Positions 1 to 11,515 of a stretch of 11,515 nucleotides of DNA are shown in pieces. The stretch comes from a virus: UHGV virus genome UHGV-0113878. One strand, given 5' to 3'. Made by a program: the position numbers and the translations under genes. Position 1 is the stretch's first letter; the number at the start of each line of letters is the position of its first letter. The notes beneath the pieces are model-generated. The model saw only the letters and a program-made list of their open reading frames with translations. It searched no databases and was not told the DNA's origin.

Positions 1-50
1 TCACAAAGTCACCTGTCACTCTTTCTGGCTGCCAGATAAGGATTGAGTAA
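1..50 (+). CDS. 3' end of an upstream late gene (partial; by position possibly the gp10-like tail hub/head completion gene)
   Basis: The frame ending at TAA 48-50 is open from the window edge (codons 3-5 onward, reading ...[15 protein letters not shown]). The stop overlaps the ATG of the next gene (TAATG), the same coupling used elsewhere in this operon. The product is inferred only from P22 gene order. Confidence 0.3.
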
Positions 51-1003
51 TGGCTGATTCGAATCTCAATGAGCCAGTAATCATCCAGGCTACGCGGCTC
101 GATACATCAGTCCTTCCACGCAATATCTTCTCGCAGTCGTATCTGCTTTACGTTATTGCACAGGGTGCTGATGTTGGTAACGTGGCTAACAAGGCTAACG
201 AAGCAGGGAAGGGGGCTTATGATGCACAGGTGAAGAATGATGAGCAGGATGCCACCCTTGCAGACCATGAATCCAGAATTGCTGCTGCTGAAGCAACTCT
301 CGTCAATCATGAACATAGAATCGCAACAGCGGAAAGCACTCTTGCAGATCATGAAACAAGGATTATGGCTGCCGAAACAGAGCTGGCTGATCACGAGACG
401 CGAATTGCTGCCAATGAATCTGAGTTAGCAGACCATGATGCGCGCATAACTCAGAATACAACCGATATCGACGCACTTGATACCAGGCTCGCAGCGGCAG
501 AGGGAAGTATTTCGACGCTACAAAGCACAGTTGGTGATCACTCAACAAGAATATCTGCGCTTGAGTATGCCACCACGCGCAAGAAATCAGAGGTTGTTTA
601 CTCAGGAGTATCTGTAACCATCCCGACAGCGCCGACCAACCTTGTTAGCCTGCTGAAAACGCTCACGCCGTCATCCGGAACGTTGGCACCATTCTTCGAC
701 ACCGTTAACAACAAGATTGTTGTGTTCAACGAGAACAAAACCTTGTTCTTCAAGCTGTCGATTGTCGGGACGTGGCCCAGCGGAACCGCCAACAGGTCAA
801 TGCAGCTAACATTCTCCGGTTCTGTTCCTGACACACTGGTCAGCAGTCGTAATGCGGCGACAACAACCGACAACATCCTGTTAGCTACGTTCTTCAGTGT
901 GGATAAAGACGGCTTTCTTGCCACAAATGGCAGTACGTTAACCATTCAGTCGAATGGTGCGGCGTTTACTGCCACAACCATCAAGATAATCGCGGAGCAG
1001 TAA
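50..1003 (+). CDS. Tail needle protein (P22 gp26-like) with coiled-coil shaft and C-terminal knob domain
   Basis: The N-terminus [43 protein letters not shown]...[12 protein letters not shown] closely matches the P22 gp26 tail-needle N-terminus as I recall it. It is followed by a heptad-type repeat region (aa 69-152) and a ~160-aa beta-rich C-terminal extension, as in Sf6/HK620-type knobbed needles. SD-like AAGGA sits about 6 nt upstream of the ATG. Confidence 0.85.
254..505 (+). repeat. Six tandem 42-nt (14-codon) coding repeats inside the tail needle gene
   Basis: Translated units are [14 protein letters not shown] / [14 protein letters not shown] / [14 protein letters not shown] / [14 protein letters not shown] / [14 protein letters not shown] / [14 protein letters not shown]. 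They are in frame and diverged at the nucleotide level, with an [AV][DN]HExRI core. Confidence 0.7.
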
Positions 1004-1458
1004 TGATTCAGTTCAAACCAACGCGAAACATCGACCTGATCGAAGCAGTAGGAAATCACCCTGACATTATCGCCGGGAGCAACAACGGTGATGGATACGA
1101 CTACAAACCTGATTGCCGTTACTTTGAGGTGAACGTGCACGGGCAGTTCGGCGGCATTGTTTACTATCAGGAGATTCAGCCGCTGACATTCAATTGCCAC
1201 GCCATGTACCTGCCAGAGATTCGCGGCTTCAGCAAGGAAATCGGGCTGGCGTTCTGGCGATACATTCTGACTAACACCACTGTTCAGTGTGTCACATCGT
1301 TCGCTGCGCGCAAATTCCGCCACGGGCAGATGTACTGCGCAATGATTGGCCTTAATCGTGTAGGAACCATCAAGAAATACTTCAAAGGCGTGGATGACGT
1401 GACATTTTACAGTGCTACACGCGAAGAACTAATCGAATTCCTGAATCACGGGAGATAG
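1003..1458 (+). CDS. Phage protein at the gp14 position (between tail needle and ejection proteins); function not assignable from sequence
   Basis: A 151-aa ORF whose start overlaps the needle stop (TAATG). It keeps the gene order 26-14-7-20-16 of P22-like phages. No motif is recognisable; the protein is Cys/aromatic-rich. Confidence 0.6.
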   Translation: MIQFKPTRNIDLIEAVGNHPDIIAGSNNGDGYDYKPDCRYFEVNVHGQFGGIVYYQEIQPLTFNCHAMYLPEIRGFSKEIGLAFWRYILTNTTVQCVTSFAARKFRHGQMYCAMIGLNRVGTIKKYFKGVDDVTFYSATREELIEFLNHGR

Positions 1459-1460
1459 CC

Positions 1461-2153
1461 ATGTTATATGCATTTAAGCTGGGCAGAAAACTGCGCGGCG
1501 AGGAGCCTTATTGCCCTGAAAAAGGCGGGAAAGGTGGCAGTTCTGATAAAAGCGCAAAGTATGCATCAGAAGCTCAGAAGTATGCCGCAGACCTGCAAAA
1601 TCAGCAGTGGCAGACGATCATGAAAAACCTTGCTCCGTTCACGCCTCTTGCGGAGCAGTATGTTAACCAGCTTCAGAACCTTTCCAGTTTAGAAGGTCAG
1701 GGGCAGGCACTTAATCAGTATTACAACTCTCAGCAGTATAAAGACCTTGCAGGTCAGGCTCGTTACCAGAGTCTTGCTGCTGCGGAGGCTACGGGAGGAC
1801 TTGGTTCGACAGCCACAAGCAATCAACTGGCTACGATCGCGCCGACTCTCGGTCAGTCTTGGTTATCAAACCAGATGAGCAATTACAACAATCTGGCAAA
1901 CGTTGGGCTTGGTGCGCTGCAAGGTCAGGCAAACGCCGGGCAGACGTACGCCAACAACATGAGCAGCATTGCACAGCAAAGCGCAGCTCTTGCCGCTGCT
2001 AATGCCAACAAACCATCAAGTCTTCAGACAGCAATTAGTGGCGGAACGTCTGGTGCGATTGCCGGTGCAGGTCTTGCCAGCCTTTTGGGAACATCAACAC
2101 CTTGGGGCGCTGGCATTGGTGCTGGTATCGGATTGCTTGGCTCGTTGTTTTAA
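1461..2153 (+). CDS. Ejection (DNA-transfer / internal virion) protein, gp7-position
   Basis: 230 aa, close to the ~229 aa of P22 gp7, and in the expected position. It is Gln/Ala/Gly/Ser-rich and ends in a glycine-zipper-like hydrophobic segment (GAIAGAGLASLLG...GAGIGAGIGLLGSLF). Confidence 0.75.
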   Translation: MLYAFKLGRKLRGEEPYCPEKGGKGGSSDKSAKYASEAQKYAADLQNQQWQTIMKNLAPFTPLAEQYVNQLQNLSSLEGQGQALNQYYNSQQYKDLAGQARYQSLAAAEATGGLGSTATSNQLATIAPTLGQSWLSNQMSNYNNLANVGLGALQGQANAGQTYANNMSSIAQQSAALAAANANKPSSLQTAISGGTSGAIAGAGLASLLGTSTPWGAGIGAGIGLLGSLF

Positions 2154-2162
2154 GGGGTAATC

Positions 2163-3494
2163 ATGGCTACTTGGCAAGGATCAAATGGCGGATTGTTGGC
2201 TGGTATCGGCGGCGTCAACTCAAACGCTCCGAGCGTAAATGACATCGGCAATACGCTTCAGCTTATCAGGCAGAACAATGATATTGAGCGTTCAGGTGCT
2301 AACAATGTTGGGCTGACTGCTTTGCAAGGTCTTTCAGGTATTGCGGGTGTTTTTCAGCAGGAAAAGCAGGCTCAGCGGCAGAAAGAATTTCAGCAGGCGT
2401 ACGCTAATGCTTATGCGTCTGGTGATCGCGGTGCTTTGCGTCAGTTGGCTACTCAATATCCAGACCAGATTGAATCCGTTCGTAAAGGCATGGGATTCAT
2501 TGATGAAGAGCAGCGTAATTCTATCGGCACCTTAGCGGCTGGCGCACGCCTTGCGTCATCGTCTCCAGAAGCAATGCAATCATGGCTGCAAAACAACGCC
2601 GGTGAGTTAGCTCGTGTTGGCGTTAATCCTCATGACGTCGCTCAGATGTACCAACAGAACCCGCGGCAGTTCGGCGAATTTGTCGATCACCTGGGGATGA
2701 ACAGTCTCGGGCCAGAAAAATACTTTGACCTACAGGATAAAATGCAGGGTCGCCAGGTGACCATGCGCGGTCAGGATCTGGATTCGCAAACCGCCGCCCG
2801 GAATCAGGCAATCACAATGCGTGGGCAAGATATCCAGGCAAATTTAGGTCAGCAGCGCATTAATCTGGACGCAGAAACAAACCGCATTAACAACGAAAAT
2901 AAGCACCTTGACCGGATGCTATCAGCAGAAACTAACGACCTGAAGCGCCAGGAAATACAGAGCCGCATAGCAGCCAACAACCAGAAGTTGCAGCAGAAGC
3001 AGCAAGAGCTAAATGATGGCTACAAAGACGGCATCAACACTCTCACAACCAGCATGTTCACTCTGAACGATATCGTTAATTCTCCTGCACTTAAGAGCAT
3101 TACAGGCTTGCGTGGAGCAATCCCCAACGTTCCAGGCTCACAAGCTGCAGACACTCAGGCGCGACTTGATACCTTTAAATCCCAAGCATACCTGACAGCG
3201 GTTCAGGCCATGCGAGGCATGGGCGCACTTTCTGATGCCGAGGGCAAAAAGCTCGACCAGGCTGTTGGTTCGCTGCAGAACTCACAGAGCGAGGAGTCCT
3301 TTCGTCGCAACGCTGGCGTCATCCTGAACACGCTCAACCAGAAGCGTAATGAGGCGGTTGGTAAGTACGTTCAGCAAAACGGTATCAAGCGAGTGGAAGC
3401 GCCTCAGGCTTCTATAGATTACCTGAAGCAGCACCCCGAGCTGTCAATCGACTTCATTAATCGCTACGGATATCTTCCATCTTTGGGGCAGTAA
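2163..3494 (+). CDS. Ejection (DNA-transfer / internal virion) protein, gp20-position
   Basis: A 443-aa ORF with a good SD (AAGGGG) upstream. It is Gln/Asn-rich with an internal repeat ([VI]TMRGQD[LI]) and predicted coiled-coil character. Assignment is by size and synteny. Confidence 0.7.
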   Translation: MATWQGSNGGLLAGIGGVNSNAPSVNDIGNTLQLIRQNNDIERSGANNVGLTALQGLSGIAGVFQQEKQAQRQKEFQQAYANAYASGDRGALRQLATQYPDQIESVRKGMGFIDEEQRNSIGTLAAGARLASSSPEAMQSWLQNNAGELARVGVNPHDVAQMYQQNPRQFGEFVDHLGMNSLGPEKYFDLQDKMQGRQVTMRGQDLDSQTAARNQAITMRGQDIQANLGQQRINLDAETNRINNENKHLDRMLSAETNDLKRQEIQSRIAANNQKLQQKQQELNDGYKDGINTLTTSMFTLNDIVNSPALKSITGLRGAIPNVPGSQAADTQARLDTFKSQAYLTAVQAMRGMGALSDAEGKKLDQAVGSLQNSQSEESFRRNAGVILNTLNQKRNEAVGKYVQQNGIKRVEAPQASIDYLKQHPELSIDFINRYGYLPSLGQ

Positions 3495-5888
3495 ATGGCT
3501 AATTACCGTGATTTGTTAGAGCAGGCTGGCGCACGTTACGGTGTGCCAGAAGGGTTGATGACTGCACTGGGTGCCAAGGAGTCTTCTTACAACCCTGCCG
3601 CAGTAAGCTCCGCCGGGGCTGTAGGATTGACTCAGGTCATGCCTGGGACATGGCGTGATATGGGTTATACCGATGAGCAAATGCAAAACCCCGAATATCA
3701 GGCTGACGCTGGCGCGCGCTATCTGGCAAAGATGTACCAGCAGTTTGGTAACTGGCGTGACGCTCTTCAGGCTTATCACGACGGTCCCGGCAACGTTATG
3801 AAGGCAAAGCGTGGTGAATATACGCCAGGACCTGAAGGCCGCGGTTACGTTGATGATCGCTTTGCTCAATGGGCTGGTGACCCGGTGACAGACTCAACAG
3901 TCGAACAGCGCGCCACCTCTGCAAAGGTACATCCTCAGCAAGACCCTAACAACCCGTTTGCACAACTGGAAGTACAGTCATCCGAACAAGTATCGGCATC
4001 AGGTGTGCAGTCAGACCCAAATAATCCATTTGCTCAGATTGAGCAGCAGGCAGCCAGTCAGCAGCCACCTCAACCCGTAAGTTCTGTCGCACCGAAACCT
4101 GTTCAGCAGCAAGGCGGAATAATGTCTGACCTTGGTAATGGACTTGCTGAAACCGGGCGCGGCTTACTACAGGCAGGAATCAACGTAGCGAACATACCTG
4201 CTGAACTCACTGATGCTGTAACAAGCGCGGCGGCTTGGGCTGGCGGTAAACTCGGCATTGGCGATGGTACATATCAACCAGCGCCACGAGTAACAACGCA
4301 GGGATTAGAGCAGGACTTTGGCCTTCAGCAAGGCGCGCTGACTCCACAAACGACAGAGGGAAGGGTATTTGCTGAAGCATTGCCTTACCTCACTCCTGCT
4401 GGCGTTGAGAGAGCGGCGGTACAGGCACCAACACTTGCTGGTCGAATTGCTCAGGGGGCAACTCGCCTTCTAGCAGAAAACGCAGTTGGATCACTTGCTG
4501 CAAACAGTATGAAAGATGATGCTGAAGCACTCGCTACCGATTTAGGCGTTGGTGTGCTGGCTGGCGGTGCTATTAACGCTGCCGGACGTGGATTAGGTGC
4601 TGCTTATCGTGGCGTTCGTGGTGCTATTGCGCCAGAAGCGCAGCAGGCTATCAGATTTGCAGAGCGTGAAGGAGTTCCTCTGCACACCACAGACCTGTTA
4701 CAGCCTACTTCCCGCGTCGGGAAAATGGCGCAGACGACAGCGGAAAATATCCCCCTGGCTGGCACAAGCGGAATGAGAGCAACGCAACAGGAAGCGAGAA
4801 GCCAGTTGGTGCAGAGATTTGCTGATAAATTCGGTGAGTATGATCCAGCTGTTGTTATTGACAGCCTTAAAGCGAAAACATCAGGAATTCGTCGTGCTGC
4901 AGGGAACCGTCTTGAGCAGGTTCAGAATGCAATGGCGGGAGTCAATATCCAGCCTGCTCGAGCAATTCAGCAGATTGATACAGAAATATCTAACCTGCAG
5001 AAGCTTGGTAAGGTCGCCGATAACGAGACTATTTCAAAACTTCAGTCCTATCGTGATGAGCTTGTTCGCAATGCTGGTCCTGATGGTCCGGTAAATCTGG
5101 ATTTGAAGCAATTAAGCGATCTGCGCAGCCAGTTCAGAATGGACGTGAAGGGGGAACGACCAGTGTTACCAAACCGGTCCGATGCTGCCATTCAGCGCGT
5201 TTACAAGGCAATGACAGACGATATCAATGGTGCCATTGGTCAGAATCTTGGCAACGATACTCTCCGTAAATATCAGCAGGCCAATGCCGTCTACGCTGAC
5301 GAAGCGGCGAAACTAAAGAATACCAGGCTGAAGAATGTTCTCATGAAAGGCGACCTGACGCCGGAAGTTGTCAACAACATGCTATTCAGCAAGAACAAAT
5401 CGGAAATTAAGACGCTGTATAACTCAGTTGGTCGTGTTGGCAGGGCGCAAATGCGCAATGGCATCATTGGAAAGGCGATGGAGAAATCAGGTGGTTCCCC
5501 TGACCAGTTCCTTCGACAGCTTAACATCCTGCAAAACCAGACTGGCATCACATTTAAAGGTCAGGAAGCCGCTTATCTGAAAGGATTAAAAAACTACCTG
5601 CAATCCACGCAGCAGGCTGCAAAAGCGGCAGTAACAACACCCACAGGGCAGCAAACTATCCCGTTCATTATTGGGTATGGGACGGCAATGAACCCGGCGA
5701 CAACTGGCGCAGCAGTAAGCTACGGACTTCTTGCTCGCGCCTATGAGAGCGAGCCATTCAGAAATGCAATGCTCCGAATGGCAAACACCCCACGCGGATC
5801 AACAGCGTTTGAGAAAGCCATGCAGCAGGCACAAAAGGCAATTAACGCTATGACGCAGGGGGCTAAGTCTGATGCGTTGTCAGAATAG
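3495..5888 (+). CDS. Ejection protein (gp16-position) with N-terminal family-1 lytic transglycosylase (SLT) domain
   Basis: The N-terminal ~110 aa carry the three classic SLT motifs: AKES (catalytic Glu29, nt 3579-3581), GLTQVMPGTW, and AYHDGPGN. A linker with two DPNNPFAQ[LI]E repeats and a long Ala/Gly-rich body follow. The ATG abuts the upstream stop (TAAATG). Confidence 0.85.
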   Translation: MANYRDLLEQAGARYGVPEGLMTALGAKESSYNPAAVSSAGAVGLTQVMPGTWRDMGYTDEQMQNPEYQADAGARYLAKMYQQFGNWRDALQAYHDGPGNVMKAKRGEYTPGPEGRGYVDDRFAQWAGDPVTDSTVEQRATSAKVHPQQDPNNPFAQLEVQSSEQVSASGVQSDPNNPFAQIEQQAASQQPPQPVSSVAPKPVQQQGGIMSDLGNGLAETGRGLLQAGINVANIPAELTDAVTSAAAWAGGKLGIGDGTYQPAPRVTTQGLEQDFGLQQGALTPQTTEGRVFAEALPYLTPAGVERAAVQAPTLAGRIAQGATRLLAENAVGSLAANSMKDDAEALATDLGVGVLAGGAINAAGRGLGAAYRGVRGAIAPEAQQAIRFAEREGVPLHTTDLLQPTSRVGKMAQTTAENIPLAGTSGMRATQQEARSQLVQRFADKFGEYDPAVVIDSLKAKTSGIRRAAGNRLEQVQNAMAGVNIQPARAIQQIDTEISNLQKLGKVADNETISKLQSYRDELVRNAGPDGPVNLDLKQLSDLRSQFRMDVKGERPVLPNRSDAAIQRVYKAMTDDINGAIGQNLGNDTLRKYQQANAVYADEAAKLKNTRLKNVLMKGDLTPEVVNNMLFSKNKSEIKTLYNSVGRVGRAQMRNGIIGKAMEKSGGSPDQFLRQLNILQNQTGITFKGQEAAYLKGLKNYLQSTQQAAKAAVTTPTGQQTIPFIIGYGTAMNPATTGAAVSYGLLARAYESEPFRNAMLRMANTPRGSTAFEKAMQQAQKAINAMTQGAKSDALSE

Positions 5889-6052
5889 CTTCGCAAACAC
5901 CAGGAACGTGCAAAAACCAAATATATAGAGCGCAATATTCAACAGATCTCTTTGCATAGACTCATCTCATAATTAACAAATCATAACTGACATTAGTGCA
6001 ATGCAGGGCAAGTTGCATCTTGTTCAGCATTGCTACGTCTGGAGCAAATTAA

Positions 6053-8452
6053 ATGACAGATATTACAGCCAATGTTGTAGTGAGTATGCCTTCGCAACTC
6101 TTCACTATGGCGCGTTCTTTTAAAGCGGTTGCCAATGGCAAAATTTATATCGGTAAAATTGACACTGACCCGGTAAATCCTGAAAACCAGATTCAGGTTT
6201 ATGTGGAGAACGAAGACGGTTCTCACATTCCTGTTTCTCAACCAATCATCATTAACGCTGCTGGATATCCGGTATATAACGGGCAGATTGCCAAATTCGT
6301 AACTGTTCAAGGCCATTCTATGGCTGTATATGATGCATATGGCACTCAGCAGTTCTATTTCCCTAATGTGCTGAAGTATGACCCGGATCAGCTACGGCAG
6401 CAGTTAGAAGACCCGGATGGTGCTAAAAAATATCCCGAATTGCAGATTGCACGATGGCGTGATGACAAAGATGTTCGCGGTTGGGGGGCTATCAGTGATG
6501 GAATAACTGACGCTACTGAGGCATTCTCTAACGCAGGCTATAGAATGTTTGTTCCTGATGGCGATTTTGCAGTAAATACTCTCGAAGTTGATGTATCTTC
6601 TGTTCAAGGTATTGGGAGGATTGTTGCTGATAATGGATCTCTTATTTCAGTTTCTCGTCTACTTGAAACTGACAAACTTGTGCAGAGAAAAATGATGGAA
6701 CCTTTTTTTGGTTTTCAGGGAGAAACAAACACAGAAATTTATCCTAATGCCAGAAATGCGTTACAGGGGATCGCATATTGCCGTGTTAATGGCATTGAAA
6801 AACTATTTGTCACACAACGGCCTGTTGGGCCAACCTGGTCAGATAAAGAAAGAGTTCGTATTGTTGAGTTTAATCTTTATGATGATGGAAGGGTAGTAAA
6901 CCATGTTGCGTATTCTCCAGAATTAAACCTTGGGCACGGATTTGATCTTTCTGCCATGGTGGAGAATGGTCAAGTATATTTATATACATCAAGTGTAACC
7001 AATTCAGGTGAAGATGGGGAGTCTGCAGGCAAAGGGTTTAGTAAAATAACTTGGCGAGGGGCAGGAACAACTCAGTCTGACGTAAAAAGTTATAATGTAT
7101 GGGGGATTACTGGTAGCGGTCACCCATTTCAAGATTACAATCGTGCAGGAATTGCCATTTCTTCTGACGGTCGTCTTTTAATAATGGTTAATACACCAAA
7201 GAGTGATGCCGCTAAACGAACTGTATTTATATACGATAAAATATCAATTGATAAACTTGAAGATAAAACATTAGCAAACCCCATGTTTGTTTGGGAAATG
7301 AGCGACTCACCTTCTGAAGGCGCTTACTCTGTACAAGGTATTGCGTCTGATGGAAGATATATACATATACTTAAGGGAGGCACTAATGCTTTTGGAAAGC
7401 ATCATATCTTTACATATGATTTAACAGGTAATTTACTAAGAAAATTAGATATCGATGATGCAAGGTCGCAATATGGGCGCGATGGGTTGCTTAACCATCC
7501 AACTCTTGGGAATCCAGCCAGATTCGAGCCGGAAGGTTTAACTATTCGTGGCGAAGAAATAATTATAAGCTGCATAGAAACATGGAGGGCAGGAGCTAAT
7601 ATTGTAAACTGGCGTGGAAGAAGATGGGCTGCATCATCCATTGAGACTTCTGGAATAATTGGTGTCCCTCCATCAAATGGCTCTTATTGGGTAGAAACAA
7701 CCAAGGATGCAAATTCTGGAGACTGGAGTCCTGATACAGATTATGGATGGGGAAGTAGCTATTCTCTTGAGAAAAAGACAATTTACTCTATACGACCAGC
7801 GACTGGTAACAACGATGAGCAGAACCTTAATTCTGGCATAACCAATGCTTCAAGTAATGCAGGTGTAGATGCCGGAGAAAGCGGGCGAAATATATCATTT
7901 AGATGGCGCAATGCTTTTAATATTGTTGCATTTAGCGAACGTCTTGGTGAGTACTTCAAAGCTATTATGTATGATAATAGCTCAAGATTAAGAATATACG
8001 ATCAGCAAAACGGTAGTGATAACACTGTTTATGGCTCAATCCAGGCACTATTTACGTCATCATTTAAGGGATTGATTTTAAGGGGTAGGGGGGTATCAGC
8101 ATCAAATAGTTCCTATATTAGGTTACATTCATCTGATGATCCAAACTACCCAAATTCGATCATTGAAGGAACAAGAACAGATGGAAGTTTTTCCAGGGAA
8201 ACAGATTCAAACGGAACCACTACATTTGCATCGGACTCAGAGCACGAACCGTTGCGTATCAGAAGGGCTTCAGATGGTTTGTTGTTTGCATACGAGAAAG
8301 TAAGAGGTACAACTCTCTTTGGAATTTATAGAGGCTCCGGTTCACCTGAGGGTGTTGTGACCGCACCTCAGGGGTCAATGTACATTGATTATAATGGTGA
8401 TTGGTATCAAAAGAAAACAGGAACAGGAAATACAGGATGGGTGTTAAAATAG
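6053..8452 (+). CDS. Tailspike protein: P22/Sf6/HK620-type head-binding N-terminal domain fused to a divergent receptor-binding (probable glycan-depolymerase) region
   Basis: The N-terminal ~113 aa ([50 protein letters not shown]...VLKYDPDQ) match the conserved head-binding domain of P22 gp9 and the HK620/Sf6 tailspikes as I recall them. The remaining ~690 aa are unrelated to the P22 beta-helix. GGAG sits 8 nt upstream of the ATG. The gene is markedly more AT-rich than upstream genes. Confidence 0.9.
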
Positions 8453-8532
8453 ACTATTCTATTTTAATTTTTCCCATTAATTAATGATGGGAATCCCAAA
8501 AATTGATAATACATCATCTATTTATAACTCAG

Positions 8533-8557
8533 CCACCTCATAGTGAGGTGGTCTTTT
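8533..8557 (+). terminator. Putative rho-independent terminator after the tailspike gene
   Basis: An 8-bp perfect stem CCACCTCA/TGAGGTGG with a 3-nt loop is followed by TCTTTT. A second, weaker similar hairpin (CCACC-TTG-GGTGG + GCTTTTA) lies at 8576-8595. Confidence 0.5.
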
Positions 8558-8634
8558 ACTGTTATCCCTAAATCACCACCTTGGGTGGGCTTTTACCAAT
8601 ACCAATGACAGTATTTTTGCTGTAAGAAAGTAAC

Positions 8635-8656
8635 AATAAACCATAAATGGTTTATT
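8635..8656. promoter_or_regulatory. Perfect 10-bp inverted repeat (AATAAACCAT-AA-ATGGTTTATT), candidate operator or regulatory site upstream of the lysis cassette
   Basis: The dyad symmetry is read directly from the sequence. It lies ~55 nt upstream of the first lysis-cassette start, in an AT-rich intergenic region. Function is inferred. Confidence 0.35.
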
Positions 8657-8701
8657 ATGCTTTGTGACTTACCATTTAGGAGGTTGTAATGCATATAAAC
8701 G

Positions 8702-9112
8702 GTGGAAAACATGTCAGCCCAACTAACCAGTGAAACTTTAAATCAGTGGCTTAGCATGAGTTCTCTGGCGGCGGTGATAGCAGGAGTTCCTCCTGAGGTT
8801 GCTTTGGGGGCTTTGGCTGGAGCGGTAATTTTTGTTACCTCTGCGGTAGAGTATCCCATTCGTCGTCGTGTACTCTTGTCGATGCTTAGCTTTCTCTGCG
8901 GCCTTCTTTTTTATAAACCAGCAGCATCAATTCTTATCGGCATAGCCAGCCTGATCCCTACTATCACGCAGGACTCTTTTGAAAAAGGGATTGTTTTCTC
9001 TGCTGGTGCATTCGTGTCAGCAATCGTCGCAGTTCGAATTGGCATCTGGCTCTATCACCGTTCCGATAATCCACGCGAGTTAATTCCGGGGAGAAAAGGC
9101 GATGGTAACTAA
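8702..9112 (+). CDS. Small multi-pass membrane protein, first gene of lysis cassette (putative holin/antiholin-like); likely true start at ATG 8711
   Basis: About four hydrophobic helices and a charged C-terminal tail ([18 protein letters not shown]). GTG 8702 has no SD, whereas ATG 8711 has GGTGGA 4 nt upstream. The 3' end overlaps the next gene by 11 nt. Confidence 0.55.
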   Translation: MENMSAQLTSETLNQWLSMSSLAAVIAGVPPEVALGALAGAVIFVTSAVEYPIRRRVLLSMLSFLCGLLFYKPAASILIGIASLIPTITQDSFEKGIVFSAGAFVSAIVAVRIGIWLYHRSDNPRELIPGRKGDGN

Positions 9113-9410
9113 TGAGCTTGTTTTGCTTATCACCAATGCACTTATTTGTACTGGCATAGCAATTCGTGTTGTCACATTCCGGCGTAACGGTTCACAACAT
9201 CGAAGATGGGGTGGCTGGCTTGCTTATTTTCTGATTGTTGCTGCGGCCAGTATTCCAGTTCGTGCTGTCTATGCAATCTGGCTACGCACGCCAATGGCTG
9301 TGGATTTATCTGAGGTCATTATCAACGCTGTCATGCTTGCTGCGGTTCTTAAAACTCGCGGTAACGTTGTTCAGATTTTCAAAATAACGAGGTCTAAACA
9401 TGGAGATTAA
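9102..9410 (+). CDS. Putative class-I-like holin (3 TM, N-out/C-in predicted)
   Basis: 102 aa with three hydrophobic segments, a positively charged TM1-TM2 loop (RRNGSQHRR) and a charged C-terminus ([19 protein letters not shown]). It lies immediately upstream of, and overlapping, the endolysin gene. Confidence 0.6.
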
Positions 9411-10029
9411 ACAATTCCAACGAGCTGCTGGTATTAGCGAGGTGCTGGCCGCACGCTGGTTCTCGCATATAACTTCTGCGATGAAAGAGTTTGATATCAG
9501 CAAACCAGAAGATCAGGCAATGTTTATTGCTCAGGTCGGGCATGAGTCTGGAGGCTTCACCCGGTTGCAGGAAAATTTCAACTACAGCGTCAGCGGACTG
9601 GCGAGCTTTGTCAGGACTGGACGCCTCACCCAGGGACAGGCTAATGCACTGGGGCGCCGTGCTGGTGAACCACCATTGCCACTTGAGCGCCAGCGCGCGA
9701 TCGCAAATCTGGTTTACAGCAAACGCATGGGTAACAATGCTCCCGGCGATGGCTGGAATTACCGTGGGCGCGGGCTTATCCAGATTACCGGTTTGAATAA
9801 CTATCGTGACTGCGGAAACGGTCTGAAAGTTGACCTGCTGGAGAATCCTGAACTGCTGGCGCAGGACGAATACGCGGCTCGTAGCGCGGCGTGGTTCTTT
9901 GCCAGCAAAGGATGCATGAAGTATACCGGTGATATTGCACGTGTAACTCTGATTATCAATGGTGGCCGGAACGGCATCGACGACCGGCGCGCGCGGTACG
10001 TCACTGCCAGTAAGGTGCTGGCTATATGA
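9400..10029 (+). CDS. Endolysin, glycoside hydrolase family 19-like (chitinase-class-I-type phage lysozyme)
   Basis: 209 aa with GH19-type motifs: GHESGGF...ENFNY (Glu49 at nt 9544-9546, Glu58) and [15 protein letters not shown]. There is no N-terminal signal or SAR hydrophobic segment. GAGG lies 7 nt upstream of the ATG. Size and motifs resemble the GH19 endolysins of Salmonella phages such as SPN1S, as I recall them. Confidence 0.88.
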
Positions 10030-10508
10030 TCTTAGCATTCGTAAAAGCATATCAGAAACAACTACTTATCGTGGTGATGCTTGCTGCTCTGTTCATCGTC
10101 GGAGTGGTTGCCTGGAATATACACGGCAGTCGCCAGTACGATGCCGGGTATGCGCAGGCGGAAGAAGACCGCAAAGACGAAGAAGACAAAGTTCGTCAGT
10201 ACTACGAACAGGAGAAAGTGACCAATGAACGTGAAGCGCAGCAGAGAATCGACCAGGCGCGCAATGATGCTCTTGATGCTGCCGCTCGCGCTGGCAGGTT
10301 GCAGCAACAACTCTTTGCCATCCGTGAGCAGCTCAGGCAGTATAACGCCATTGTCGGCGCTGGGACGTCAGCCGCAGACACCGGAGTTTTGCTTGCCGAC
10401 GTGCTCAGCAAATCTCTCGAGAGAAACAGACAACTGGCAGAGTATGCTGACCGGGCAGCCGAAGCCGGAAGAGTCTGCGAAAAACAGTATGACACCCTGA
10501 CAAGATAG
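10026..10508 (+). CDS. i-spanin (Rz-like): N-terminal TM anchor plus periplasmic coiled coil
   Basis: The start overlaps the endolysin stop (ATGA). An N-terminal hydrophobic helix ([18 protein letters not shown]) is followed by a charged, Gln/Arg/Glu-rich helical region. A complete lipoprotein ORF is embedded in the +1 frame. Confidence 0.8.
10225..10500 (+). CDS. o-spanin (Rz1-like outer-membrane lipoprotein), fully embedded in the i-spanin gene in the +1 frame
   Basis: Signal peptide with lipobox LALAG|C (Cys26, nt 10300-10302) and a Pro/Ser-rich mature region of ~66 aa. AGGAGA lies ~8 nt upstream of the ATG. The embedded layout matches the lambda Rz/Rz1 paradigm. Confidence 0.75.
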   Translation: MNVKRSRESTRRAMMLLMLPLALAGCSNNSLPSVSSSGSITPLSALGRQPQTPEFCLPTCSANLSRETDNWQSMLTGQPKPEESAKNSMTP

Positions 10509-10663
10509 CATGGCATTTTTCATGGTACTGATTTCCGGTGACGGTATATAAAACGGTACGGTGAAAATCATGTTGCAGGAAGTTGTTATCAGTCAATTGG
10601 TTATGGTATCCGTAAATAATTGAGTGGGAATGATTTTGATCCCTGCACTATGAATGAACAAAA

Positions 10664-10690
10664 CCCTCTGTTACTACAGAGGGTTTTTTA
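10664..10690. terminator. Bidirectional rho-independent terminator between convergent transcription units
   Basis: A 7-bp GC-rich stem CCCTCTG/CAGAGGG with loop TTACTA is flanked by an A-tract upstream (ACAAAA) and a T-tract downstream (TTTTTTA). It sits between the end of the + strand lysis cassette and the 3' end of the minus-strand gene. Confidence 0.7.
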
Positions 10691-10727
10691 TCTTCAAGAA
10701 TTATAGGCTTGAAGTTACTTACATCGA

Positions 10728-11267
10728 TTAATTAAACCAGCTGTCCGATTTGTTCTCTTCTGCTTTGCCCACGCTTTTCATCAGATCTCGACCGCCCTCA
10801 GTCATATTCCTGTTTGCGTCAGCTTCAGATTGCACCACATCGGTTTGCGCAGCTTTGTGCTTCAGTTCCTGATCGATAAATTCGTTTTCTCGCTTAACGC
10901 GGGCTTCTTCTTTCGCCAGCGCCAGTTTTTGTTTCTGAATCTCTAAGCTGCGTAGCTCATCTTGATAACTTTGATCGCGTTTTTTGTCCGCAGAGGCTTC
11001 GGCGTCCAGTTTATCCTGACGAGCTTTCTTATTTGCCGCTGCCGTTGTCGCTCTTTTGTTAGCGGCGGCCTGGGCGTTTGCGCGACGTTGCTTCTCTTGC
11101 TGGATTTCCCTGTTGCGCTCCGCGACCCATTCGTCATGCTGCCTTTGCTCTTCATTTTTACCTTGCTGTTCCGCTTCTGCGACAGCAGAGAGTTGATCCT
11201 GCAATGATGAGGCGATAGCCGGATAGCTTAAGGAAGCTAAGATGGCGCAAAGAAAAACTTTCTTCAT
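10728..11267 (-). CDS. Secreted/periplasmic highly charged coiled-coil protein of unknown function
   Basis: 179 aa with an N-terminal signal peptide (MKKVFLCAILASLSYPAIA|SS) followed by a Lys/Glu/Gln/Ala-rich predicted helical region. The SD (AGGAG) is correctly spaced. It is convergent with the phage genes. Confidence 0.7.
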   Translation of the reverse strand: MKKVFLCAILASLSYPAIASSLQDQLSAVAEAEQQGKNEEQRQHDEWVAERNREIQQEKQRRANAQAAANKRATTAAANKKARQDKLDAEASADKKRDQSYQDELRSLEIQKQKLALAKEEARVKRENEFIDQELKHKAAQTDVVQSEADANRNMTEGGRDLMKSVGKAEENKSDSWFN

Positions 11268-11282
11268 GACTCCTCCTGATTA

Positions 11283-11515
11283 TTAGCTCTTTTCAGGACA
11301 TTTGGTATTTGGCTGAATACGCGTTTCGTTATACGTCGTGGTAATAACAACGGCTAAACCTGTCGTAAACTGGCACTCTTTACCCACCTGGGTGGAGGTA
11401 TACACTTTGGTGCCTTCCTTATACGTTAGAGAAACACCTTCCACTAAGGTTTTATCATTCACCATAGAACCCGCTGCCGCGCCAACAGCTCCGCCGCCAA
11501 CTGCACCTAAGCATC
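11283..11515 (-). CDS. Glycine-zipper motif protein (partial; 5' end lies beyond the window), probable envelope protein
   Basis: The minus-strand frame is open to the window edge and translates to ...CLGAVGGGAVGAAAGSMVNDKTLVEGVSLTYKEGTKVYTSTQVGKECQFTTGLAVVITTTYNETRIQPNTKCPEKS*. A G/A-rich glycine-zipper segment precedes a beta-rich C-terminus. The ORF track's Met at 11465 is internal. The stop lies 15 nt upstream of the 179-aa gene start, so the two form an operon. Confidence 0.55.
   Translation of the reverse strand, partial: CLGAVGGGAVGAAAGSMVNDKTLVEGVSLTYKEGTKVYTSTQVGKECQFTTGLAVVITTTYNETRIQPNTKCPEKS

Follow-up and report, generated by a model that had tools for sequence, protein, structure and literature searches.

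In this study, we asked why a complete lysis cassette directly follows the tailspike gene of a sequence that otherwise looks P22-like, in an 11,515-nt stretch of the virus genome UHGV-0113878, to which we refer as the window. The initial annotation had offered two readings, a noncanonical late-operon layout of a P22-like phage or a junction with a second phage-derived element. The cassette is almost certainly the end of a Uetakevirus-type prophage integrated at guaA, and we infer, with a probability of roughly 0.7, that this prophage end was joined to P22-like genes as a chimera of low-coverage metagenome assembly.

Regarding the genes themselves, open reading frames and Pfam domains confirmed the lysis cassette as first described, with two membrane proteins, an endolysin and an Rz/Rz1 pair following the tailspike, all encoded on the plus strand (Table 1). 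The RefSeq start of the first gene is the ATG at 8711 and not the GTG at 8702, giving a product of 133 aa for which a crude hydropathy scan returned about three to four hydrophobic stretches; epsilon15 gp23 is annotated with three TMDs. The epsilon15 endolysin record cites the SPN1S endolysin structure 4ok7, the epsilon15 counterpart of the DUF2514 gene is annotated as 'putative Rz-like protein', and the annotated epsilon15 Rz1 displays the identical 276-nt embedded geometry. By homology to characterised relatives, lysis would involve permeabilisation of the inner membrane by the holin, murein cleavage by the endolysin and outer-membrane disruption by the spanins. Homology to the P22-type lysis genes (13, 19, 15) was not found for the cassette, which carries GH19 and Phage_holin_8/3_7 domains instead. 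The leader at 8630–8710 corresponds to an epsilon15 stretch that carries the annotation of an RNase III processing site. A promoter scan of 8300–10800 gave 3 sites against 3.7 expected from shuffles, i.e. no excess.

Table 1. Coordinates of features in the window
Feature	Position	Strand	Domain or remark
P22-like tail needle with knob (gp26-type)	50–1003	+	PF16532 Phage_tail_NK
P22-like gp14-type (DUF2824) protein and three ejection proteins	1003–5888	+	PF11039, PF25688, PF16928, PF01464+PF26808
gp7-type ejection protein	1461–2153	+	
gp20-type ejection protein	2163–3494	+	
gp16-type ejection protein	3495–5888	+	SLT domain
Tailspike gene, P22-type head-binding domain	6053–8452	+	PF09008
Tailspike 5' part, P22/Lederbergvirus-type head-binding anchor	6053–6496	+	PF09008 Head_binding; ~148 codons
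Tailspike receptor-binding segment plus 18 bp	6497–8469	+	~1.95-kb repeat; stop ends at 8452
Terminator-like hairpin after tailspike	8532–8552	+	
Conserved Uetakevirus leader 5' of lysis cassette	8630–8710	+	Homology to phiV10, TL-2011b, ZX5 and epsilon15 begins at 8630–8641
Membrane protein, epsilon15 gp23 homologue	8711–9112	+	PF16931 Phage_holin_8
Holin	9102–9410	+	PF05449 Phage_holin_3_7; epsilon15 homologue annotated holin
GH19 endolysin	9400–10029	+	PF00182 Glyco_hydro_19
Rz-like i-spanin	10026–10508	+	PF10721 DUF2514; N-terminal hydrophobic stretch
Rz1-like o-spanin	10225–10500	+	Wholly inside Rz gene, other frame; lipobox LALAGC
attR phage arm (P arm of attP)	10509–10618	+	88–99% identity to Uetakevirus phages up to 10635/10636
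att core ATTGAGTGGGAATGATT	10619–10635	+	Single exact occurrence in window; published attP/attB core
Host terminator hairpin, guaA–yfgI spacer	10660–10687		12-bp stem; inside K-12-aligned stretch
Host gene yfgI (DUF5384)	10728–11267	-	PF17358
Host gene yfgH, 3' part	11283–11515	-	Runs off window

The origin of the cassette follows from its comparison with Uetakevirus phages. Between 8630 and 10636, the window is 82–95% identical to phiV10, TL-2011b, ZX5, YDC107_2 and epsilon15; over about 2.0 kb, the values are 82% for epsilon15, 88% for phiV10 and 93–95% for TL-2011b, EC.W1-9 and YDC107_2. Open reading frames, Pfam domains and the Rz1 translation match the epsilon15 annotation feature by feature, the annotated order there being tailspike, conversion genes, gp23, holin, endolysin, Rz/Rz1, Int/IHF sites and int. 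Since tailspike, lysis cassette, attP and int is the canonical Uetakevirus order, the cassette constitutes, in a lysogen, the last phage operon before attR. Downstream of it, 10509–10618 corresponds to an epsilon15 stretch with annotated binding sites for integrase and IHF, and the adjoining 17-bp core attgagtgggaatgatt is the published attP/attB core of phiV10, epsilon15 and ZX5 (PMC9782041). This core spans the last codons and the stop of guaA (I-E-W-E-stop) and is present in the empty guaA site. Mapping against the uninterrupted host locus, as the initial annotation had proposed, located the boundary: alignment to K-12 guaA–yfgI begins at 10619, and that to epsilon15 extends to 10636. With the core followed by host DNA of the guaA–yfgI spacer, we therefore assign this position to the attR of a guaA-integrated Uetakevirus-type prophage. 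A terminator and convergent host-like genes had been thought to bound the cassette; yfgI and yfgH are indeed convergent to it and the hairpin exists, but this terminator is host DNA past the att core and lies outside the phage cassette. The suspected junction with a second phage-derived element was borne out, as the leader from 8630, the cassette and the attP arm with the core to 10635 make up a Uetakevirus right end. The att boundary is that of a separate prophage, of which the cassette is part, and the gene order is common and well described.

The left part of the window is of the other type. Pfam domains gave the P22-like late order of needle, gp14, gp7, gp20, gp16 and Head_binding tailspike, so that the virion genes 5' of the cassette, and the tailspike anchor too, are P22-like instead of Uetakevirus-type. 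Positions 1–8451 are 99.8% identical to the argW prophage of E. coli 7/2, where RefSeq names the needle 'tail needle knob protein', with zero differences over 1–6602 and none from the needle through the three ejection genes. The phages vB_EcoP-683R2 and Gally match the gp16 and tailspike of the window at 97%, and Sf6 is another related phage. In P22-like prophages at argW (E. coli 7/2, 222), a GDSL esterase, DUF1796, intS and argW come after the tailspike, and the lysis genes (lambda-family holin, GH24 lysozyme, lysis protein) occupy the interval from Q to the terminase; a GH19 cassette behind the tailspike is absent from all of these prophages. The same continuation, tailspike, GDSL esterase, DUF1796, intS, (where annotated) argW and yfdC, was found without exception when the 24 longest contigs encoding exactly this gp16 were inspected. 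In the window, a tRNA search found none, and nothing argW-like lies 3' of the tailspike. The idea of a noncanonical P22-like late operon found no support: in the 7/2 prophage, the interval from Q to the terminase holds a holin, a GH24 lysozyme and a lysis protein of its own, and the linked order occurs in no sequenced phage or complete E. coli genome searched.

The initial annotation implied a junction behind the tailspike, but it does not lie in the 250-bp spacer there. Judged from the alignments, the switch from P22-like to Uetakevirus-type sequence is instead inside the tailspike gene, in the segment from 6497 to about 8469 that both prophage types share. The anchor at 6053–6496 matches P22-like prophages only, Uetakevirus-type homology starts at 6497, and 6497–8469 is common to P22-like (argW) and Uetakevirus-type (guaA) prophages at 98.8–99.6% identity. 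The alignments consequently overlap, that of 7/2 covering 1–8451 and that of strain UID2309220007 covering 6497–11508, with 6497–8451 in common; over 8089–11508, the window shows zero differences from the guaA Uetakevirus-type prophage of the latter. The receptor-binding segment, across which GC drops to 39–41%, occurs at 48 places in 44 complete genomes, and the same domain follows either the 148-codon P22-type or an approximately 207-codon Uetakevirus-type anchor. The spacer at 8470–8629 was found only in Uetakevirus-type prophages carrying this tailspike, and 8200–9100 is matched in full by five complete genomes, of which all three examined upstream carry Uetakevirus-type virion genes. A site-specific insertion of a P22-like element beside the cassette was rejected, because the switch lies inside homologous coding sequence.

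We searched for the linked layout in several collections. An exact-protein look-up returned a single contig with this tailspike protein, ERZ1742584 NODE_1263_length_15760_cov_4.68, a metagenome NODE contig of 4.7x coverage which ends in the scaffold gene and is listed in two samples. No place covering at least 80% of the whole window was found in 5,426 complete E. coli genomes, nor of window 4500–9800 in 50,697 phage records. Of 48 long contigs, 24 were the longest encoding exactly this gp16 and 24 the longest encoding exactly this holin; the linked layout was found in none of them, and all showed the unlinked parental contexts; the exact-holin contigs carry Uetakevirus-type genes upstream and an 858-aa tailspike wherever that gene was called. 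Complete genomes for which enough upstream sequence was inspected likewise have Uetakevirus virion genes and a Uetakevirus-type tailspike ahead of the cassette, in the order portal, capsid, tail, 858-aa tailspike, same cassette and then yfgI. Both prophages are present in the complete genomes of UID2309220007 and CEA601S, where they are unlinked at a distance of about 196 kb and the P22-like ejection genes differ from those of the window. No complete genome was found that could model the source strain by being identical to the window on both flanks.

We therefore favour an assembly chimera, with the P22-like genes and the lysis genes being adjacent on account of a 2-kb tailspike receptor-binding segment that is common to both prophage types. 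The metagenome likely held E. coli carrying both prophages, and a short-read assembler may have walked through the tailspike repeat at 4.7x, entering from the P22-like side and leaving on the Uetakevirus side. The P22-like virion genes would then stem from the other prophage type, normally located at argW with its own lysis cassette ahead of the terminase, and the two types would be connected in the window only via the approximately 1.95-kb segment of about 99% identity in both. The pattern of differences within the repeat is compatible with this walk. All repeat bases are accounted for by one class or the other, and the 34 class-diagnostic sites alternate in the order P, V, P, V, P, V, which corresponds to five switches in 1.4 kb; over 6497–7720, the best identity among the 48 natural copies is at most 99.2%. 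We had considered this mosaic as proof of assembler bubble-popping, but it was demoted to suggestive: the P22-type tailspike copy of CEA601S is itself patchy, a natural (or polishing-derived) mosaic with the same V-P-V pattern as the window from 7639 onward, and since natural mosaic tailspike alleles exist, the alternation can only be suggestive. It should be noted that two switches span 42 and 46 bp, less than a 55-mer, so that an assembler origin would need carry-over from smaller k, and that the lack of any switch across short gaps does not reach significance by itself (rough estimate p ~0.4 if switches are proportional to length).

That the junction is physically real, with the tailspike receptor-binding domain acting as a portable homology region which fuses a P22-like virion module to a Uetakevirus lysis–attR end, appears doubtful to us. 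It could have arisen by homologous recombination in the shared segment, the partners being either two prophages of the same host or a resident Uetakevirus-type prophage and a P22-like genome entering the cell, and with copies co-oriented as in UID2309220007 the product would be a tandem duplication of about 196 kb, an excised circle, or the outcome of Campbell-type integration, with a circular P22-like genome inserted in the tailspike gene of the resident. Such an event would not lack opportunity, as both parents occur in single genomes on the same strand at this distance and about 1.95 kb at about 99% identity is ample RecA substrate; the Uetakevirus-class patches in the CEA601S copy indicate that exchange between tailspike classes happens, and the listing of the contig in two samples also speaks for it. 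However, the junction is absent from the 5,426 complete genomes and the 48 long contigs, a simple deletion between the repeats would yield the reciprocal junction instead, large duplications are not stable and rarely become the dominant form in a population, and the five class switches within 1.4 kb exceed what a single crossover normally leaves behind, so that we regard recombination, taken alone, as unlikely. Within a real junction, a large chromosomal duplication or insertion in a double lysogen would be the likelier outcome, and a viable cross-genus hybrid with its lysis cassette behind the tailspike the less likely one.

Such a hybrid phage, combining the P22-like virion module with the lysis, attP and int module of a Uetakevirus in a noncanonical late operon, would fit the high mosaicism of temperate enterobacterial podoviruses as well as the description of the region 3' of the tailspike as variable in both Lederbergvirus and Uetakevirus (PMC10408124), and the contig is collinear with intact reading frames throughout. 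Yet we consider it very improbable, given that the layout is in no phage record or prophage searched, that both flanks are without difference from separate extant prophages and show no sign of an independently evolving lineage, and that the P22-like parent already has a complete lysis cassette. Furthermore, the contig stops in the scaffold gene, short of any terminase-proximal lysis cassette or Uetakevirus int.

The cassette, its position after the tailspike, the att core and the guaA site are already textbook for epsilon15/phiV10-type phages, and the biological importance of the locus is consequently small. The lesson is rather one of method: two unrelated prophages in one host may share a 2-kb, about 99% identical receptor-binding segment, and short-read or metagenome assemblies can splice such prophages into apparently novel phage architectures. 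If the join were true, the receptor-binding domain would constitute a recombination bridge between phage genera, which would be of moderate interest for phage mosaicism.

Compared with the Uetakevirus phages epsilon15, phiV10, TL-2011b, vB_EcoP_ZX5 and phiv142-3, the five open reading frames of the cassette are alike in order and overlaps, the attP arm is the same, the 17-bp core is identical and integration takes place at the guaA 3' end. The window differs in its P22-type tailspike anchor, where Uetakevirus tailspikes have the Uetakevirus anchor of about 207 codons, and in having only a 250-bp spacer with hairpins between tailspike and cassette, where epsilon15 and phiV10 carry O-antigen conversion genes; the same spacer layout is found in the prophages of UID2309220007, CEA601S, A0 34/86, EC19 and EC21. 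Sharing of tailspike domains between both genera is already published, Pas et al. 2023 having described how Lederbergvirus and Uetakevirus exchange the receptor-binding domains of their tailspikes (PMC10408124). Our observations agree with theirs in that the N-terminal anchor is specific to the genus and the C-terminal receptor-binding domain attached to it is common across genera. In their case the domain itself was exchanged, whereas here the common domain is the repeat through which the ends of two otherwise unrelated prophages are connected on one contig.

The initial annotation had described a lysis cassette after the tailspike, followed by a terminator and convergent genes, and this description was accurate, as seen from the ORFs, the Pfam hits, an embedded Rz1-like ORF and the terminator hairpin (table). 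Plus-strand ORFs run continuously over 50–10508 in an ORF scan of the window, which corresponds to positions 4201–15715 of the metagenome contig ENA ERZ1742584 NODE_1263_length_15760_cov_4.68. This contig, with a coverage of only 4.7x, is the sole contig in the look-up collection with this exact tailspike protein. Gene families were taken from Pfam hits precomputed for the contig and form two blocks, a P22-type block, which also holds coat, gp4 and gp10 genes, and a lysis block. We additionally observed a near-repeat run L-A-D-H-E-T/S-R-I-x-A-A-E in the coiled-coil part of the tail needle, before the knob domain.

Features of the window and the basis of their assignment
Feature	Position	Strand	Basis
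Needle knob (tail needle, PF16532)	50–1003	+	Pfam
DUF2824	1003–1458	+	Pfam
gp7	1461–2153	+	Pfam
gp20-type	2163–3494	+	Pfam
gp16 with SLT	3495–5888	+	Pfam
Head_binding tailspike	6053–8452	+	Pfam
Phage_holin_8	8711–9112	+	Pfam
Phage_holin_3_7	9102–9410	+	Pfam
Glyco_hydro_19	9400–10029	+	Pfam
DUF2514	10026–10508	+	Pfam
Rz1-like ORF, embedded, lipobox LALAGC	10225–10500	+	Translation
Strong hairpin terminator	10660–10687		Hairpin scan
DUF5384 (yfgI), 3' of lysis genes		opposite	Pfam

In megablast searches against phage records, the hits to the cassette region 8453–10727 come from Uetakevirus and related records rather than from P22-like phages, with cassette identities of 94.9% to YDC107_2, ~93% to EC.W1-9, TL-2011b and phiv142-3, 87.9% to phiV10 and 82.3% to epsilon15. 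All phage alignments start at 8627–8723 (the closest at 8630) and most stop near 10635. Homology to epsilon15 ends at 10636, while E. coli K-12 homology, comprising the guaA–yfgI spacer, yfgI and yfgH, starts at 10619. Within this overlap lies ATTGAGTGGGAATGATT (10619–10635), the published attP/attB core of phiV10, epsilon15 and vB_EcoP_ZX5 at the guaA 3' end (PMC9782041). The core contains the last guaA codons, I-E-W-E, and the stop codon. From the homology boundary and the published core, we therefore assign the right part of the window to attR of a guaA-integrated Uetakevirus-type prophage, which bears out the earlier suggestion of a junction with a second phage-derived element. The terminator and the convergent genes yfgI and yfgH are ordinary host DNA, and an epsilon15/phiV10-type prophage at guaA almost certainly contributed the cassette as its ordinary lysis module, together with attR. 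Variation at this end was observed elsewhere: GCA_050192275.1 (L023 9121–9579) carries a Y1 transposase gene (IS200/IS605 type) between Rz and yfgI, at or beside the Uetakevirus-type attR, and in E. coli EC19 (L011 7195–7955; also L025 and L027) window homology ends at 10159 within the Rz gene, with an Rz of 165 aa in these three loci vs 160 aa in the window. In EC19, the gene 3' of the cassette is annotated as capsule biosynthesis protein, not yfgI; the three loci represent a variant cassette end, possibly in a different integration context.

The left part of the window has a different parent. The chromosome of E. coli 7/2 aligns to window 1–8451 at 99.79%, with zero differences up to 6602, through a P22-like prophage at argW in which the tailspike is followed by GDSL esterase, DUF1796, intS and tRNA-Arg. 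A second lysis cassette near the terminase, which the initial annotation had proposed to look for, is present in this prophage, where a Q antiterminator, lambda-family holin, GH24 lysozyme and lysis protein precede the terminase (small and large subunit) and portal genes; the P22-like parent has the canonical layout. Between tailspike and tRNA-Arg (L001 14572–17470), DUF1796 is a putative cysteine peptidase, and another integrase, accompanied by a torI/xis-like gene, lies at the far prophage end; the element may be composite or a carrier of O-antigen-modifying morons. E. coli UID2309220007 aligns to window 6497–11508 at 99.58%, with zero differences from 8089 on, through a guaA prophage with Uetakevirus-type portal, capsid, staple and tail genes, ending in tailspike, cassette and yfgI. 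The two alignments overlap at 6497–8451 (to 8469 for some genomes), the receptor-binding part of the tailspike; the P22-type anchor comprises ~148 codons, while the 858-aa Uetakevirus-type tailspike has an anchor of ~207. Lederbergvirus and Uetakevirus tailspikes are known to share receptor-binding domains (PMC10408124). Taking this sharing and the overlap together, the junction lies within the tailspike gene and not in the spacer behind it. GC content, which falls to 39–41% in the shared receptor-binding part, is 37–42% over 6250–8750 (receptor-binding segment and spacer) vs 49–55% in the flanking P22-like and lysis genes, as would be expected for a domain of separate origin that moves horizontally. 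At 8532–8600, 3' of the tailspike stop codon, two successive GC-rich hairpins with T-runs were observed, GCCACCTCA-TAG-TGAGGTGG by hairpin scan and CACCACC-TTG-GGTGGG by eye. Should these act as transcription terminators, expression of the lysis cassette would depend on a promoter of its own or on antitermination; a promoter scan gave no cassette promoter above shuffles.

The linked arrangement was found in neither collection searched: no place covers at least 80% of the whole window in 5,426 complete E. coli genomes, where the best matches end at 8451 or 8469, or at least 80% of window 4500–9800 in 50,697 phage records. The exact gp16 is indexed in 244 blocks, and all 24 longest contigs continue with tailspike, GDSL, DUF1796, integrase and yfdC. 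For the exact holin, indexed in 412 blocks, every one of the 24 longest contigs has Uetakevirus-type upstream genes (Bro-N, 85-aa ORF), and the tailspike is 858 aa long wherever that gene was called. Window 8200–9100, from the tailspike 3' end to the holin, is fully matched in five complete genomes, all annotated with a Uetakevirus-type tailspike and, in both of those examined far enough upstream, with Uetakevirus virion genes.

Both prophage types with the same receptor-binding segment occur in two complete genomes, UID2309220007 and CEA601S. In the former, annotation splits the guaA tailspike (L002 17679–20104) into a fragment labelled as a pseudogene and a 271-aa ORF, and single-base deletions are seen at window-equivalent 7378 and 8088, which reflect either genuine decay or indel errors of long-read sequencing. 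The guaA prophage of CEA601S (L003 4914–6980) seems degraded, with two partial pseudogenes in the capsid region and the terminase region apparently missing, yet its 858-aa tailspike and lysis cassette are intact.

We propose, with a probability of roughly 0.7, that the P22-like virion genes were joined to the cassette via the common tailspike domain as an assembly chimera. A UID2309220007-like strain holds a 1.95-kb repeat of ~99% identity, longer than a short-read insert. Comparing 8 P22-linked (P) with 15 Uetakevirus-linked (V) natural copies, we obtained 34 fixed class differences within 6497–8451, at which the window reads P 6511–6557, V 6603–6841, P 7381–7552, V 7639–7693, P 7735–7866 and V 7960–8444. 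These five switches fall in 0/23 gaps below 33 bp vs 5/10 longer gaps; each base of 5000–9500 is reproduced exactly by alternating donors of both classes, and none of 48 copies from 44 complete genomes exceeds 99.2% identity to the window over 6497–7720. Such alternation is what would result if the bubbles of a collapsed two-copy repeat were each resolved independently. It is no proof, since the P22-type copy of CEA601S is itself patchy and matches the window pattern from 7639 on, the switch-free short gaps are not significant given the small length covered, and two switches span just 42 and 46 bp. This CEA601S tailspike (L008 616–3015) carries Uetakevirus-class alleles at ~6841–7693 and 7960–8444 plus private SNPs, which could stem from gene conversion between the tailspikes of the two resident prophages or from cross-mapping when the assembly was polished.

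A real inter-prophage recombinant is unlikely. Inferring topology from UID2309220007, whose copies lie on the same strand ~196 kb apart, the Uetakevirus one coming first when read in the sense direction, an interval-deleting crossover would leave Uetakevirus-left/P22-right, opposite to the P22-left/Uetakevirus-right window. It is possible that the junction reflects a ~196-kb tandem duplication, an excised circle or the integration, by homologous recombination at the resident tailspike gene, of a circular P22-like genome, but none of these is expected to dominate a population. A viable hybrid phage, for which the searches for the linked arrangement returned no example, is highly improbable.

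There is no new biology here. The initial annotation had also considered a noncanonical P22-like layout, a reading that is not supported. In the annotated epsilon15 record, the tailspike gp20 is followed by two opposite-strand conversion genes, an RNase III site and the lysis genes (gp23 with three TMDs, holin, endolysin and Rz with embedded Rz1), ahead of integrase and IHF binding sites and the integrase. A cassette 3' of the tailspike is therefore the canonical layout of Uetakevirus, and in a lysogen it falls at the prophage end.
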